From Malacoraja senta (Eukaryota), in NCBI GenBank assembly GCA_038087875.1, contig CM075988.1, forward strand, positions 17,672,001 to 17,736,000: a stretch of DNA of 64,000 nt, in the 5' to 3' direction. Under the pieces are notes generated by a model that did no database searches, was not told where the DNA came from, and was given only the letters and a program-made list of their open reading frames with translations. Every line of letters starts with the position of its first letter. Within the stretch, counting starts at the first letter, position 1. A program made the translations under genes and the position numbers. Below are positions 11,006-53,590 of this stretch, piece by piece.

Positions 11006-13377
11006 AGGCATTAACATAATGGATAAGGCTTTAGCTGAGTATGAACTCACATGGTTCATTTTCAGCGCATTGGCCTTCATCAGTCATAGTATTGAGTATA
11101 GCAGTTGGGAGGTCTTGTTACAGTTGTGCAAGACATTGGTGAGGCCACATTTGGAGTATTATGTTCAGTTTTGGTCACCCTGTTATAGGAAAGATGTTGT
11201 TCATTTGGGGAAAGGGTGCAGAGAAGATTTATGAGGATGTTGCCAGGACTCGGCGGCCTGCGCTTCAGGGAGAGGTTGAGCAGGCTGGGACTTTATTCTT
11301 TGGAGCAAAGGAAGATGAGGGCTGATATTATTGAGGTGTACAAAATCACGAGACGAATAGATTGGGTAAATACACAGTATTTTTCCTGTTTCCATCTCTA
11401 TGACTGCAACATAACTAGTTTGTGTGGTATGCAGACTGCATATTTACATTCATCGGTCAGGTGCGGATTATAAAAGTTGAGGTCATGTTCCTGTTGTATA
11501 AAACCTTGGTTAGACCACATTTGACATTTTGTGTATAATTAAAGTCCCCCCATTGCAGGAAGGATGTAGAGGCTTGCGAGAGGATGTAGAAGAGGTTTAC
11601 CAGAATGCGGCCTGGAATAGAGGATATTAACTATAAGGAGATTTGGACAAACTTGGATTGGATTGCAGTGGATGGTCAGTCACACATACCAGACTCCCCA
11701 CCAATGACTCAATCTACATTTCCCTCGGAAAAGCAGCCAACATAATCAAAAGAACGGTCTACCCTGGTCTTTCCTTCTTCTCGCTCCCATCCAGCAGAAG
11801 GTACAAAAGCTTGAAAGCATGCACCACCAGACTCAGGAACAGCTTCTTCCCCTCTGTAATCAGGTTTCTGAACAGTCCTTCCTTAAGCTAGGGTAGTTCG
11901 ATTCACCTCTATCCCTTTGAGGACATTGGATTTGGTTTATGAAACTGGTGTACTGCAATACTGAGAACTATATTCTGCACTCTGTATCTCCCCCTTTGCC
12001 CTATCTATTGTACTTGAGTTTAGTTTAATTTATTATTGTCACGTGTATTGAGTTGCAATAAAAGCTTTTGTTTGACTAGATTGTATTTATGTATAGTATT
12101 GTGTGATCAGATTGAAAGGCATGCAAAACAAAGCTTTTCACTGTACATCGATACTCGTGACAAAAACAAACCTAAACCTAGAGCGTCAGAGTGACTTGAT
12201 AGAAGTTTATAAACTGATGAGAGGCATAGATAAGGTAGATAATCAGAGCCTCTCGCCTAGGATGAAAATGTTAAATACTAATGGACATAGCTTTAAGGTG
12301 AGAGGGGAAAGAATTACAAGACAAGTTTTGTTTTTACACAGAGTGGTGTGTTCTTGGAACACATTGCCACATAGCATGCTGAAAGCAGATACAATAACAA
12401 TGTTTAAGAGGCATTTAGACAGACATGAATATGAAGGGAGTGGCGGAATATAAACTGAATGCAGGCAGATGTACAGTTTAAATTGGCTTCTGGTTGATAG
12501 GAACGTCATAAGCTTGAGGGCCTGTTTGTGTGCAGTACTGTTCTTTGTTCAGAGAAGGAGACCTTCCCTGTCCTTATCCTGCCTAACCATTCCAGACCAC
12601 CAACGTGGTTCATTCTGAATTTCTTGAGATACCACCTTTCTGTAAATGAATATATGTTTAATGGAATCACTTTACATCAGTAAAACTCGAGCTCAGTACA
12701 TCTGGCTGTGAACCTCAGCAACTGTGGGAAATAATAATGAACAGAAAGAGGCATGAGTTACTGCTTGGGTTAATCCCAAGGTCTCAGCTGAAAGCCTGAT
12801 CTACTACAACCAGTTCTAACCAAAACCACAATAATCCACTCAAAGGCAGTTACTCAATTCGTTCAAATGAAAATTTTGCCTCATTCTTAGATAAATTGTG
12901 GTACACTTTAGTTATTCACATATATCAGTACATTAATTCTGGAAAAGCTGCCCTCACTGCCCTAACATTTCTATTGTCCAGCTACTTAAAAAACACCACA
13001 CTCGGGTCATACAATTCAAAGCACGAGGTTTCACCAAAAATCCGAACTACTGTGATTTTCCCAGTGAAAAGTCATGAAAACAGTGTTTTTTTAAACTTCT
13101 ACAACACAGGATTCTAAAAAACGGTTTCATAAATATCCAAAAAGGTATGTTCACTGGTGGAGATTGTATATGATTGGAAGATCTGTTGAATTAAATTAGC
13201 TCAAATTTAAATGGACAGTACTAAAATATGAGAATGTTACCTCATTTTTACTTATAAACACACAAAGTTGGATTGGAATGAGACGCTGGTTTGGCCATGC
13301 GATGTGCTTCATCTGGAACCTTCAACAAAGCATCACCTTCTTTGCTGGAAAGCACACAAACACCCAAAAAACCCTCC

Positions 13378-17389: not shown

Positions 17390-17554
<165 letters not shown>

Positions 17555-18553: not shown

Positions 18554-18617
18554 GTCATGGAGACCAAAAATATGCTGTATCTTGTAACTGAGTATGCCAA
18601 AAATGGAGAGATCTTTG
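18554..18617 (+). CDS. SIK2: SIK2 internal coding exon (probably coding exon 3)
   Basis: tcttgtgttcgcag acceptor and gtaagt donor. 64 nt encoding [21 protein letters not shown](D), in frame with the previous exon. The next exon (DYL..HGR) was not found in the window. Confidence 0.95.
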
Positions 18618-19129
18618 GTAAGTGTTTGTCTCATTGCATCTCTGTCCACGTCTGGCCGCCAGTTCTCACAATTCTACATGTATGAAGGCATCTAGTATAT
18701 ATGTTCAGATTAAAATGGGTTTACAAAATGAGAGGGGATAGCCATACCATTTGTTTTTTGTAAGAGAGCGAACTGAACTTCAGTAATGAAGTGGCACTCA
18801 GTAATTCGACCACAGGCACAAATTCTGGCAGATATACTCGGTGTGTGGCTGAGTGCCAGCTCTGGCTCTTTTTTTCTGAGACAGAAGTTGGGCATTCATG
18901 TCTCTCTCAGGTGTGTCTCCCATCCAATGAGATTTCCACACATTGATATCTCTGCTATAACCTGATAATGACTAGATAATTTATTTATCATCAATGTTGT
19001 CAGGACACTGGAGATAGTAAGCACCAACATGGGCTGATGTTCCATTGCAGCCATGAAGGAGCATGTTTTATTGTATTATGGTACTGTTTCTCAGATGAGA
19101 CATTAAGCTAAGGCCTGCATTTATTAATT

Positions 19130-19250
19130 CTTCGTCTTGCGTAGTCTAAAGTTGTAAGACAACTTGTTCTGTTTGATCTTCTGTGCACGCCAGGTTGATT
19201 GCATTCGTGGAAACAGGGTGGACCACGTGAAAGTTGCAATCTCCCACCCC
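19130..19250 (-). mobile_element. Ribozyme-headed SINE-like retroposon, copy A
   Basis: 12-bp TSD catttattaatt (19118-19129 and 19251-19262). Degenerate GAA-repeat tail. Highly similar to 21578-21718, with small internal deletions. Confidence 0.85.
19197..19250 (-). ncRNA. Minimal HDV-like (CPEB3-like) self-cleaving ribozyme, copy A
   Basis: Minus strand reads GGGGUGG-GA-GAUUGCA-ACU-UUCACGU-GGU-CCACCCU-GU-UUCCA-CGAA-UGCAAUC. This gives P1 7 bp with G1-U wobble, P2 7 bp, P3 3 bp, L3 UUCACGU, and J4/2 CGAA with the putative catalytic C. P4 is reduced to a short linker. Confidence 0.8.
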
Positions 19251-21577
19251 CATTTATTAATTGAACCATCAAGAGCCAATGGCATCCTTTTGAGGAAGAA
19301 TAGAGGATGCTGTCTCCAGTGTCCTGGCCACTATTTATCCCAAAGACAACGTAATTGATAAATAAATTATCTAGGCATTATCATGTTATTGCAATGGGAG
19401 ATCAGTAGGTGCAAATTCAAAAGTACCTCTTGGCTAATAGACACTTCGGGCAACTTGGATTACATAAATTAAAGAGTTTTTTTAAAGATGGGTTGCTCTG
19501 ATACTATGGAATATTTACTGTCTGGGATCTCTGAATGGTTTGAGAGTGGATTTTTGTTTGCAAGGACATTTTGTTTGAACTCCTTGCAGGATCTAGCCCA
19601 TACACTTTGTGTTGCACTGAAGGAATGTTGCATTGTCATTGGTGCCTTTTTTTAATCTGTGCAGGAGCATAAGCATTTTCGTTTTAATTCAGTCTTGAAG
19701 GATACAAGATTTCACCTAAACATACCAACTCTTGTGTACGGACTCAATGTGGTCTACTATCATAAATTCTTATCATTAGTGTGATTGTGCCGGATTAGCA
19801 GGATTGTCACTGAACTGTAGGCAAAGAAAATAATTTCACTGTACATAGGTACACATGACAATCACGTACCATTGTACATTTGAACCAGTGATCACAGCTT
19901 CCTTCACCTAGCCATTGAGATTATGAGGAGTTCTTAGGCCCAACGCACTCTGTCAACTTAAGTCTTTTATCCATTGTGCTTTTGGAGCCATTACTGAATG
20001 CAGAATTTCACTGCAGTATTTCCTGGCTGTAATGTGGAGGTGGTGGAAAGCTGGAGGAGGGGGAGGAATGGTTTTCGATCACGTTTTTTAACCTGGAACT
20101 TGCTGTATTTAATTCATTTTGGGGGTCATGTGCATTATGGGCAAGGTCAACATTTGTTATCCATTCTGCATTGCTTTGGAGAAGATGCTTGTGAGCTGCA
20201 ATCATTTTCATGAATGCTAGAGGAAGGAGTTGCAACTGCAGTACAGTTTGTGGATGATATACACTGTAGTCACAGTGCACAGAGGGGGTGTAAATTACTG
20301 TTTAGTATGACTTGGAGGTAAGAGAGCAATCCATTGATACCCAGCTGACAAACCTCCAGAAATGTGGTTCAGAAACACACGTGTAAGGTCTTTGTCAATG
20401 GGAAACAATTTAGATATTCTCTGTCAAAGGGAATTCATCCAGGGTTATCCTGTTAATTATAAACAACTCAAGGATTTCTTGTCAGTGCGAATACACTCCA
20501 GCGATGCCATCTCAATGGGAACACGTTCCAGAGATGCCATCTCAATGGGAACACACTCCTTCACAGCCTATACATTACTTCCACTTCATCAGAAGTGTCA
20601 ACTAAACCCAAAGTGAAAAAGTGTGATCATCAGAATTTTTTTTTTAAATTCATATGCACAGTAGAAATAATCTATCAATACATCTAACAAATATAGACAA
20701 TGAAGATGTTAAGCCTAACTTTAATAGACTGCGCAGGAAGCTTTCTCAATACAAACCTGGTCACCTCATAGGCCCCAGCAATACTGACCTGCTTGGCAAC
20801 CTAGCCTTAGATAATACAAAATCTAATAATGTGCAATAAGCTCTTCTAATTGAGCTGCTTTGATGTAGAATTCTGTTAAGAACATGAAAGAGTTGACTCT
20901 GTTCTGCATCAGCATTTAAGTAGTTTTATGATCTTTCTTGTTGCCCTACTGACTGATGTATGCTTGGCACATTATAAGGTCTGTTATATTATGCCATGTC
21001 TTTTGTGAATGTTTGACTCATTGATTGAATTGATTTGAGTTGAAATATACAGCATGGAAACAGGCCTTTTGGCTCACCGAGTCCACGCCATCCATTGATC
21101 ACCCGTTCACATTAGTTCTATGTTATCCCTCTGCCTACCCTCTAGGACCAATTAACCTCCAAACCCGCACGTCTTTGGAATCTAGGAGGAAACTGGAGCT
21201 TCCAGAGGAAACCAACGCAGTTACTGAAAATTCTAAACACTCTTTAAAATAAGTTTGTTCTTTAAGGAAACAATGAATTGCAGATGCTAGTTTACAAATC
21301 ATGACACAAAGTGCTGGAGTAACTCAGCATCTCAGGCAGCACCTCTGGAGAACATGGCTGGGTGAAGTTTCCGATCGGGATCTTTCTTCAATGTCACCTA
21401 TCCATGTTCTCCAGAGATGCTGCCTGACCCGCTGAGTTACTACAGCTCTGTGTCTATCTTTGTTCTTGAGTTCACGGGTTCTCATGCTCTTTCTCAATCT
21501 CGTTGTTCATGCCTCCTCTCTTTCTCAAAGGGAAGGCTTTTCTTGTTCTCTTTTTTGTATGTGTTCCATGGGGTTTA

Positions 21578-21718
21578 CTTCTTCTTCTTGCGTATGGCGT
21601 GCACAGCCTAAAGTTGTAGGACAACTTGTTCTATTTGATCTTACTTGATTGTGCACGCCAGGTTGATTGCATTCGTCGAAACAGGGCGGACCACGTTAAG
21701 GTTGCAATCTCCCACCCC
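21578..21718 (-). mobile_element. Ribozyme-headed SINE-like retroposon, copy B (141 nt, apparently full length)
   Basis: 10-bp TSD atggggttta (21568-21577 and 21719-21728). Ends in ...CAUACGCAAGAAGAAGAAG. Structured 3' half. Confidence 0.85.
21665..21718 (-). ncRNA. Minimal HDV-like ribozyme, copy B
   Basis: GGGGUGG-GA-GAUUGCA-ACC-UUAACGU-GGU-CCGCCCU-GU-UUCGA-CGAA-UGCAAUC. Same fold as copy A. An L3 C->A change removes the predicted P1.1 pair. Confidence 0.75.
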
Positions 21719-27700: not shown

Positions 27701-27976
27701 TAGGGCAGTGGATGTCGTCGACACGGATTTTAGTAACGCATTTGATAAAGTCCCTCATTATAGGCTGATCCAGAAAATTAAGATGCACGGATCCACAGTG
27801 ATTTGGGCGTTTGGATTCCGAGTTCTGCAGGGATCTGTGCTGGGATCCTGGAATGCTGGGACCTCTGTTGTTTCTGATACATGTACATAAAGTAAAGTAA
27901 ATTTATTTATATAGCACTTTTCAATCAATTTCAATCACTGAAGCCAAAGTGCTTTACAGAGAAAATTATCCATATA

Positions 27977-29592
27977 CAGTGGCTTGCAAAAGTATTCATA
28001 CCCCTTGAATTTTTCCACATTTTGTCACGTTACAACCACAAACGTAAATGTATTTTATTGGGATTTTATGTGATAGACCAACACAAAGTGGCGCATAATT
28101 GTGAAGTGGAAGGAAAATGATACATGGTTTTCAAATTTGTTTACAAATAAAAAACTGAAAAGTGTCACGTGCAAAAGTATTCAGCCCCCTTTACTCTGAT
28201 ACCCCTAAATAAAATCCAGTGCAACCAATTGGCTTCAGAAGTCACCTAATTAGTAAATAGAGTCCACTTGTGTGTAATCTAATCTCAGTATAAATACAGC
28301 TGTTCTGTGAAGGCCTCAGAGGTTCGTTAGAGAACATTAGTGAACAAACAGCATCATGAAGCCCAAGGAACACACCAGACAGGTCAGGGATAAAGTTGTG
28401 GAGAAGTTTAAAGCAGGGTTAGGTTATAAACAAATATCCCAAGCTTTGAACATCTCACGGAGCACTGTTCAATCCATCATCCGAAAATGGAAAGAGTATG
28501 GCACAACTGCAAACCTACCAAGACATGGCCGTTCACCTAAACTGACAGGTCGGGCAAGGAGAGCATTGATCAGAGAAGCAGCCAAGAGGCCCATGGTAAC
28601 TCTGGAGGAGCTGCAGAGATCCACAGCTCGGGTGGGAGAATCTGGCCACAGGACAACTATTAGTCGTGCACTCCACAAATCGGGCCTTTATGGAAGAGTG
28701 GCAAGAAGAAAGCCATTGTTGAAAAAAAGCCATAAGAAGTCCCGTTTGCAGTTTGCCACAATCCATGTGGGGGACTCAGCAAACATGTGGAGGAAGGTGC
28801 ACTGGTCAGATGAGACCAAAATTGAAGTTTTTGGCCTAAATGCAAAACGCTATGTGTGGCGGAAACCTAACACTGCACATCACCCTGAACACACCATCCC
28901 CACTGTGAAACATGGTGCTGGCAACATCATGCTGTGGGGATGCTTATCTTCAGCAGGGACAGGGAAGCTGGTGAGAGTTGATGGGAAGATGGATGGAGCC
29001 AAATACAGGGCAATCTTGGAAGAAAACCTGTTAGAGTCTGCAAAAGACTTGAGACTGGGGCGGAGGTTCACCTTCCAGCAGGACAACGACCCTAAACATA
29101 CAGCCAGAGCTACAATGGAATGGTTTAGATCAAAGCATATTCATGTGTTAGAATGGCCCAGTCAAAGTCCAGACCTAAATCCAATTGAGAATCTCTGGCA
29201 AGACTTGAAAATTGCTGTTCACAGACGCTCTCCATCCAATCTGACAGCTTGAGCTATTTTGCAAAGAAGAATGGGCAAAAATTTCAGTCTCTAGATGTGC
29301 AAAGCTGGTAGAGACATACCCCCAAAAGACTTGGAGCTGTAATTGCAGCGAAAGGTGGTTCTACAAAGTATTGACTCACGGGGGCTGAATACTTTTGCAC
29401 GCGACACTTTTCAGTTTTTTATTTATAAAAAAATTTGAAGACCATGTATCATTTTCATTCCACTTCACAATTATGCACCACTTTGTGTTGGTCTATCACA
29501 TACAATCCCAATAAAATACATTTACGTTTGTGGTTGTAACGTGACAAAATGTGGAAAAGTTCAAGGGGTATGAATACTTTTGCAAGCCACTG
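27977..29592 (+). mobile_element. Full-length Tc1/mariner DNA transposon (IR/DR type)
   Basis: TA TSD on both sides. ~210-bp TIRs starting cagtggcttgcaaaagtattca, with an inner repeat gcaaaagtattca. Contains a transposase ORF. Confidence 0.97.
28356..29374 (+). pseudogene. Tc1 DD34E transposase, frameshifted near the C-terminus
   Basis: 298-aa ORF with paired-like HTH, WSDETK, QQDNDPKH and SPDLNPIE motifs; 34 residues between D and E. The remaining ELFCKEEW...GGSTKY* is out of frame after ~29245 and again at ~29320. Confidence 0.92.
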
Positions 29593-30282
29593 TAAATGAA
29601 AAAAAAAGAGGTAGGAAAAAAAGGACACGACACACTATTAGAGATTCAACACGAACATCCCCCCACAGCAGAGTCGACACTCTCCACTGTGAGGGAAAGG
29701 CACCAAAATGTCCAGTCCTCCTCCTAGTCCACCCGAGGTCGGGGCCAGTTTGAGGCCTCCGCAGCCAGTCGCCGCAACGGCAGCCCGATGTTGTAGGCCC
29801 GCCTGCCGGGAAGCTGGAACACCGGCATCGGGTGGAAAGTCCTCAGCGGCTTGGAAGTGTCTGGAGCGGCCGCTCCCTCCCCGGAGACTGCGACGCCCGT
29901 GGACTTCAGGCCGCGCCGGTTGGAGCTTCGACTCTGACTCCGTGGTGTTTTCGATCCAGCGCCGCCCGCCCGCGGCGGGACGACCGCAGACCGCGGCTGC
30001 TCGATGTTGGTGGTCGGCGGTCACAGCACTCCGGAGCGGCGACCCGGCAAGGCATCGCCCGCTCCGTGTTGGTGTCCCAGCGCTGTGCCGCCGAAGCTGT
30101 GGTCCCGGCAGGAACGCCGCTCCAGCCCGATGGAAGGCCGCATGGGGAGAGCGAAGATGCGATTTGGAGGAAAACCGCATCTCCGACCAGGTAGGACTGG
30201 GGTTGAAACAGTTTCCCACCCACCCCCCACATAGAAAGAATAGACCTCCAAATAAAAGTTATAGACAATAAAAAGGTTTAGA

Positions 30283-53390: not shown

Positions 53391-53590
53391 NNNNNNNNNN
53401 NNNNNNNNNNNNNNNNNNNNNNNNNNNNNNNNNNNNNNNNNNNNNNNNNNNNNNNNNNNNNNNNNNNNNNNNNNNNNNNNNNNNNNNNNNNNNNNNNNNN
53501 NNNNNNNNNNNNNNNNNNNNNNNNNNNNNNNNNNNNNNNNNNNNNNNNNNNNNNNNNNNNNNNNNNNNNNNNNNNNNNNNNNNNNNNNNN
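53391..53590. other. Assembly gap (200 N)
   Basis: Run of N. Confidence 1.

Follow-up and report, generated by a model that had tools for sequence, protein, structure and literature searches.

R2 SIDEs of Drosophila join a 5′ HDV-like ribozyme to the 3′ end of their own LINE (Eickbush & Eickbush 2012, PMC3414825). According to that paper, the ribozyme sets the 5′ end of these non-autonomous elements and the protein of the parent mobilises them; they are rare, specific for rDNA and have R2 (or R1) as parent. The Vingi-1_EE derivatives, RIME/Ingi and NARTc/L1Tc arose by internal deletion from an Ingi/Vingi-type LINE, of which the two ends alone are retained, and reportedly have no tRNA or 5S head (Kojima 2018, PMC5786205). 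Vingi itself is compact, with a single ORF that contains APE and RT domains and no RNase H (PMC13708176, in part). On the ribozyme side, the features of HDV-like ribozymes include a nested double pseudoknot of P1, P1.1, P2 and P3 (PMC6326823, in part). The drz-Mtgn and theta ribozymes (Kienbeck 2024, PMC10879173) form this double pseudoknot in ~55 nt, with a short loop for P4 and with the catalytic C as first base of J4/2. In that study, such P4-less ribozymes cleave in vitro and are reported almost only from gut phages, beside tRNAs.

Copy A, the subject of this analysis, is located in a 64,000-nt stretch of Malacoraja senta DNA (the window) and belongs to a repeat family with a putative ribozyme head. 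Like the R2 SIDEs, this family combines such a head with the 3′ end of its own LINE and is non-autonomous, and the same roles of ribozyme and parental protein are proposed for it. Unlike the R2 SIDEs, it is dispersed in thousands of copies, has an APE-type parent and carries a 54-nt head without P4. The family has the organization of a bipartite non-autonomous LINE of the SIDE type: LINE 5′ and 3′ parts with the ORF deleted, dispersed copies, target duplications and a microsatellite tail. The lack of a tRNA or 5S head and the retention of the two LINE ends alone are shared with the derivatives of Vingi-1_EE, Ingi and L1Tc. The predicted catalytic C opens J4/2 as in the drz-Mtgn and theta ribozymes, and the double pseudoknot, the short loop for P4 and the length are alike; here, in place of a phage setting, we are dealing with the predicted head of a vertebrate retroposon. 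Mammalian CPEB3 (RF00622) and copy A have identical letters in L3, J1/4 and J4/2 and a one-pair P1.1. CPEB3 is a conserved, single-copy, sense-intronic ribozyme with P4, whereas copy A has other stems, no P4 and no Rfam match, and lies antisense.

The features are collected in Table 1. Copy A is very probably the insertion of a mini-retroposon whose head would have freed the transcripts of master copies at G1; the copy itself is likely to be decaying neutrally and is predicted to misfold. Taken alone, it is an ordinary decayed insertion that matters little and is a poor choice for an assay. The family matters more.

Table 1. Coordinates of features in the window and, for the last three rows, in other loci of the genome.
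Feature	Position	Strand	Remarks
Copy A, bipartite non-autonomous derivative of a Vingi-like LINE (5′ head + 3′ end)	19130..19250	(-)	121 nt
Putative ribozyme head, copy A	19197..19250	(-)	predicted cleavage 5′ of G1 = 19250
P1 5′ strand, copy A	19244..19250	(-)	partner 19221-19215; G1·U36 wobble; position 32 (19219) is a subfamily/CpG site
P2 5′ strand, copy A	19235..19241	(-)	partner 19203-19197; 5/7 pairs double-changed in sister family
P3 + L3, copy A	19222..19234	(-)	C22 (19229) x G37 (19214) = P1.1; private C19U at 19232
J1/4, 5-nt linker replacing P4, J4/2, copy A	19204..19214	(-)	private G42C at 19209; predicted catalytic C44 at 19207
Predicted non-native 5-bp helix	19206..19227	(-)	19227-19223 x 19210-19206; enabled by G42C; C44 x G25
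Rest of LINE 5′ UTR-derived part, copy A	19181..19196	(-)	has 5′ arm of the 5′-3′ stem seen in intact copies
LINE 3′ end, copy A	19130..19158	(-)	last codons, stop, 3′ UTR, (AAG)n tail
Target-site duplication, upstream copy	19251..19262	(-)	12 bp; abuts G1 of copy A; direct reading
Target-site duplication, downstream copy	19118..19129	(-)	12 bp; copy A; direct reading
Copy B, major subfamily	21578..21718	(-)	141 nt; 10-bp target duplication; C22A at 21697
Host exon, SIK-family kinase	17402..17518	(+)	best PDB sequence match SIK3
Next host exon	18554..18617	(+)	copies A and B antisense in intronic DNA after it
P4-bearing CPEB3-like head	L254:1465-1548	(-)	44 bits; then Vingi-like APE frame
P4-bearing CPEB3-like head	L245:1483-1567	(+)	then Vingi-like APE frame
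P4-bearing CPEB3-like head	L239:1460-1548	(-)	51.1 bits; no ORF match after head

Predicted fold of the 54-nt head of copy A

The minus-strand head of copy A can form a P4-less double pseudoknot of the HDV/CPEB3 type in which every pair is possible. It consists of P1 (positions 1–7/30–36), a J1/2 of 2 nt, P2 (10–16/48–54) and P3 (17–19/27–29), with L3 UUCACGU, J1/4 GU, the 5-nt linker and J4/2 CGAA. All pairs are Watson–Crick or G·U and the canonical core nucleotides are all retained. This agrees with the original prediction, which had described the core of copy A as intact and had proposed a single C-G pair for P1.1 from L3 and J1/4; C22 and G37 can indeed pair. Of the letters that mark HDV-like ribozymes, copy A has the G1–pyrimidine pair (G1·U36), U20 and G25 in L3, and a J4/2 that opens with C44. 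In place of P4 there is only the linker, and the head matches the minimal HDV-like subclass and not the full form.

A strict descriptor gave one match in the real window and one match over 200 shuffled windows, which indicates that the fold of copy A is not a chance occurrence. Rfam searches with the whole window and with 19000–19500 found nothing; copy A went undetected under the gathering cutoff and also with the limit relaxed to E ≤ 10, and the gathering threshold of the CPEB3 model RF00622 was not reached. In nested-model folding, the head is no better folded than shuffled sequences (z 0.5–0.7).

The mini-element family and its parent LINE

The first 18 nt of the element have 4,063 exact matches in the 1.94-Gb genome (control 0), and its 25-nt 3′ anchor has 3,421. 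From the overlap of the head and 3′-anchor samples (29/90 and 7/30), family size is estimated at 12,600–14,700 copies, about 13,000. The two commonest 54-mers occur in 155 + 425 = 580 exact, unmutated copies genome-wide, duplicated segments being counted. Copies were sampled by the 3′ anchor and thus chosen without conditioning on the head: 90 of the first 100 matches listed (3,421 in total), all within the initial 55 Mb of contig C1, were taken, and 73 copies remained once 5 duplicates and 12 copies with truncations or gaps had been set aside. A target duplication of 7–15 bp was found in 65 of these 73, and the tails are (AAG)n. The duplication ends directly before G1 in 35 copies, at +1 base in 19 and at −1 base in 3, so that 57 of 65 lie within one base; a base other than G occupies position 1 in 10 of the 73. 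Sites 8 (in J1/2), 32 (the U-A/U·G pair) and 45 (the base after the catalytic C) are commonly variable in the family. Among the matches listed, 89 derived from an exclusion pattern 3′ of the head are mostly indel variants of the mini-element.

Several minor observations concern the structure of the family. Nucleotides 60–69 of the mini-element (for example in copy B) are fully complementary to a 10-nt stretch of the 3′ UTR, where the parent LINE has a mismatch; the mini-element may thus have gained a better 5′–3′ stem than its parent. Copy A lacks ~12 nt that correspond to the 3′ arm of this stem in copy B, and with this arm lost its mobilisation is unlikely. Further subfamilies (L181 and L194; L183, L191 and L192; L184–L188) have other middles between head and tail, which suggests several independent internal deletions from one parent LINE. 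Eight near-identical copies with common flanks on small contigs (L016–L023) represent one insertion in a larger repeated unit.

The parent was traced from an RT fragment that lay in L182, among 21 loci matched by a pattern on the 3′ side, and that led to 20 RT loci in the genome. The 3′ end of the element is present in 11 of these 20 and its head in 5, three of them inverted. Locus L206 begins with the same head, followed by the APE and RT domains (Exo_endo_phos_2 and RVT_1) up to the stop; it is ~3.1 kb long, its frame is broken by frameshifts, and the pieces of L206 gave no match to RNase H. The head of the mini-element is 88% identical to the 5′ end of L206, and the 3′ 40 nt of copy B match the ends of both L204 and L215 exactly. 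The mini-element therefore retains ~77 nt of the LINE 5′ end together with the last codons, 3′ UTR and tail, the ORF being deleted. A SINE with a tRNA or 5S head was rejected, since the head corresponds to the 5′ end of the LINE. A sister LINE, L222, has APE and RT within a single frame of 886 aa. Apart from the broken frame of L206 itself, the parent LINE has the Vingi-type architecture outlined above, and by size and domains it appears to be Vingi-like; on the same grounds an RTE parent was provisionally set aside.

Parent copies L205, L216 and L217 have an inverted 5′ part that includes the head, as expected of twin priming. The strict descriptor found no head in L202–L237, which are mostly 5′-truncated or mutated loci, and over 15 sister LINE loci a single weak match was all that Rfam gave at E ≤ 1.

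A second mini-element family (L238, L240, L249, L257 and L258–L272) is ~150–170 nt long and has a P4-less head with a CPEB3-identical P3 and the linker UUCCA. Several of its copies exceed the Rfam CPEB3 threshold, and copies with a longer P1 3′ strand begin one base inside the 7-bp P1. Its head has the same length and can be aligned with that of copy A's family without gaps over 54 columns. Between the two families, 10 of 18 pairs have changed on both sides (three in P1, five in P2 and two in P3) as against 0–2 in slid controls; the nine rows were hand-picked and effectively amount to one two-family comparison, and a value of 10 pairs was also attained in 29 of 500 shuffles. L3, J1/4 and the catalytic C are unchanged. 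This covariation and, indirectly, the position of the 5′ ends at G1 support, for the family, the reading of the head as an HDV/CPEB3-type ribozyme. The evidence for a conserved fold pertains to the masters and not to copy A.

A motif for the CPEB3 core has 21 matches in the genome, and 9 of the 20 loci fetched pass the Rfam CPEB3 threshold (35.1–51.1 bits). The frames that follow the heads of L254 and L245 are 31–57% identical to Vingi-like families. A run of 28 nt is identical between the sister head in L254 and the 5′ end given for Vingi-2_Gav in the supplement to PMC5786205 (compared by eye). A younger Vingi-like family (L223:3769-3853 on the minus strand, and L224), with long open frames and copies that are 97–98% alike, starts with a P4-bearing HDV-like fold whose P3 equals that of CPEB3 and whose P1 contains one mismatch; this head had no Rfam match at E ≤ 1. 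Vingi is absent from the ribozyme-bearing LINE clades listed in the available part of PMC5786205. Our literature search found no paper linking CPEB3 and Vingi and, among those that name Vingi together with ribozymes, no title on this link, with subscription papers, patents and Repbase reports outside its scope.

A more far-reaching reading, which we consider more likely than not, is that vertebrate Vingi would be a ribozyme-capped clade, with mini-elements that carry thousands of 54-nt P4-less heads, and that the mammalian CPEB3 ribozyme would be a co-opted Vingi 5′ end. In the papers searched, the clade was not found described as such; the damaged copy A is merely one member. The family copies, in their thousands, would constitute a natural mutational library of 54-nt P4-less HDV-like ribozymes. 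If the family head cleaves, such ribozymes would be abundant in a vertebrate genome also, beyond the gut phages (PMC10879173, in part), and Vingi would have to be added to the LINE clades that bear ribozymes. A cleaving head would further bear on Vingi-based tools for gene insertion in which the native 5′ UTR is retained (PMC13708176, in part). With sister heads that score above the threshold of the CPEB3 model, the question of where the CPEB3 ribozyme came from becomes open to a direct test.

Private changes of copy A and selection in the family

Compared with copy B (head at 21718–21665), copy A had been said to differ at three of 54 positions: U-A instead of U·G in P1, U·G instead of C-G in P3, and UUCCA instead of UUCGA in the linker. 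The letters are as stated, but a fourth difference exists, C22 in copy A against A22 in copy B. The private C22A in L3 of copy B breaks P1.1; all 73 sampled copies have C22. The P1 difference is not a change of copy A. Position 32, also a CpG site, is a family polymorphism (A in 21/73 sampled copies, G in 50/73), and A32 is typical of the subfamily of copy A (8/10 copies) and of the parent LINE heads. Private to copy A are C19U, found otherwise in 1/73 copies, and G42C, found in 0/73. The caveat of the original prediction that such changes may arise neutrally is the more convincing reading, as the family gives no sign of purifying selection after insertion. CpG decay, named there as a source, was ruled out as the origin of both private changes, as C19U is a non-CpG transition and G42C a transversion.

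In a young repeat family, constraint cannot be shown by comparing two copies. Judged by the test of the original prediction, 28 of the 73 sampled copies are intact (28/85 including truncated or gapped ones), and 15 of 73 equal the majority outside positions 8, 32 and 45. Non-CpG substitutions are found at 64/2550 constrained sites, 12/584 loose sites and 29/1499 sites of the tail (Fisher p 0.28 and 0.65). The catalytic C decays no differently from the other CpG Cs: C44 is changed to T in 5/73 copies, and the others are mutated in 4–7 of 73. Among the substitutions in stems, 20/72 preserve pairing, as compared with ~21% expected from the non-CpG spectrum; of the transitions in P3, four are compatible with pairing and seven break it. 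There is no sign of post-insertion selection on the family copies in this test of 73 copies, which constraint on a few copies would escape.

The effect of the private changes was predicted by nested folding with ViennaRNA. C19U turns the loop-closing C-G pair of P3 into U·G, which would raise the P3 hairpin from −1.8 to +0.6 kcal/mol (a cost of 2.4) and lower the probability of P3 from 0.52 to 0.02. The 3-bp P3 of CPEB3 and HDV is very sensitive to single mutations in mutational scans (Roberts et al., PMC9901934, in part). As a change of the linker, G42C is not harmful in itself, since UUCCA is what the sister family normally has at this place. G42C would enable a competing helix between positions 24–28 and 41–45, with a stacking energy of −10.0 kcal/mol versus −4.3 kcal/mol for the P3 of copy A. 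When the 91-nt transcript proposed earlier was folded, this helix had a probability of 0.93, P1 one of 0.05, and C44 was paired with a probability of 0.96; the upstream flank, as present in the genome, is predicted to tie up the P1 5′ strand. For the bare 54-mer, the values are 0.88 for P1 and 0.16 for pairing of C44. Trapping of C44 as strong as in copy A with its flanks was obtained for 3 of 63 gap-free foldable copies. ViennaRNA scores neither the pseudoknot nor Mg2+ contacts, and the misfold of copy A is a prediction of the nested model.

Both private changes, C19U and G42C, are thus predicted to be harmful to folding. The argument from the comparison of copies A and B fails, and the description of the differences as structure-compatible substitutions in copy A is weak: the P1 site is subfamilial, C19U would weaken P3 and G42C would create the competing helix, in which C44 is paired. 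For the same reasons, the conclusion that copy A could still self-cleave is weak.

Host locus and alternative readings

The two exons of a SIK-family kinase gene in the window (Table 1) are accompanied by an earlier exon of the same gene upstream of the window and by later exons ~2 kb beyond its end. Copy A lies 513 nt from an exon of this gene. Since the host exons are on the opposite strand, the ribozyme strand of copy A would be outside the host pre-mRNA.

In two further organisms, C and D, the flanks of copy A differ at 15–22 letters over 477–574 nt (~3–4%). Contigs of both reach into the element on either flank. No joint bypasses it, and none of these contigs shows a gap where copy A has its 3′ deletion. 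From these sequences we conclude that the insertion of copy A and its 3′ deletion predate the split from organisms C and D. In 19227–19300, three runs of C and D have one differing letter each and run X2, which may be the source of this assembly, has none. The contigs stop at 19227 (C, D) and at 19223 (X2) and do not cover position 42. C19U is probably younger than the split, as the common C19 versus the rare U19 would fit the stops at 19227 and 19223 in an assembly broken by repeats.

By analogy with the R2 SIDEs and HDV-like ribozymes, a master copy would be transcribed by read-through. Its head would fold into P1, P1.1, P2 and P3, and C44 as general acid would cut 5′ of G1. The APE and RT protein of the LINE may bind to the 3′ end, (AAG)n tail included, whereupon target-primed reverse transcription would insert the RNA, creating the duplications of 7–15 bp with G1 as the first base. 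Selection would act on the masters only, as is in part evident from subfamily sites and a sister family that keep the fold. After insertion the copies drift, which is observed for the family and presumed for copy A, with P3 predicted to be weakened by C19U and C44 to be trapped by the G42C helix. The 3′ stem arm of copy A was lost during this drift.

Copy A might be functionless and yet cleave itself in vitro, as the original prediction holds, probably slowly, if the native pseudoknot outcompeted the predicted misfold; neutral decay would be in keeping with this. Its Watson–Crick or G·U pairs and intact core nucleotides, the dominance of P1 in the isolated 54-mer, a linker that is natural in the sister family and the in vitro cleavage of other P4-less ribozymes (PMC10879173, in part) speak for this. 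We consider slow cleavage rather unlikely in view of the stronger stacking of the alternative helix, the predicted sequestration of the P1 5′ strand and the high sensitivity of a 3-bp P3 to mutation (PMC9901934, in part). Exact 5′ ends could also arise from an internal promoter with a +1 start, as with Pr77 of L1Tc, the P4-less head being a weak or vestigial ribozyme. The first 77 nt of L1Tc reportedly act as both promoter and ribozyme (PMC3383444), and a promoter would accommodate the copies with a non-G position 1, the sister-family copies that start one base within the 7-bp P1, and a head no better than shuffles in nested models. However, it is in an RNA fold and not in a DNA promoter that one would expect compensatory changes in P1, P2 and P3 while L3, J1/4 and the catalytic C stay constant between two families. 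An origin of the 5′ ends from a promoter is improbable, and the two roles are not mutually exclusive.

The host might have recruited copy A to cleave or regulate transcripts at the kinase locus, for instance as part of an antisense RNA. The intronic CPEB3 ribozyme would be a precedent for this; the exon is close and the insertion is common to at least two other organisms with flanks ~3–4% divergent. Sharing of an insertion over such a divergence is expected without selection, however, and copy A is antisense to the host gene and has two private changes predicted to be harmful, one of them probably younger than the split from C and D. We regard co-option as most improbable and retain the reading of copy A as a neutrally decaying mini-retroposon.

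Motif searches of 18618–64000 did not recover the kinase exon that should follow 18617, and in a genome-wide search for the kinase family the exons of the host gene were not among the matches listed. The window contains a gap of 200 N at 53391–53590, and its GC skew is negative from ~46 kb onwards; because of these two features, a gap or misassembly is a possible cause of the absent exon. The window also harbours a Tc1/mariner element at 27966–29603, with inverted repeats of 231 nt (94% complementary) and a transposase frame of 302 aa at 28344–29252.
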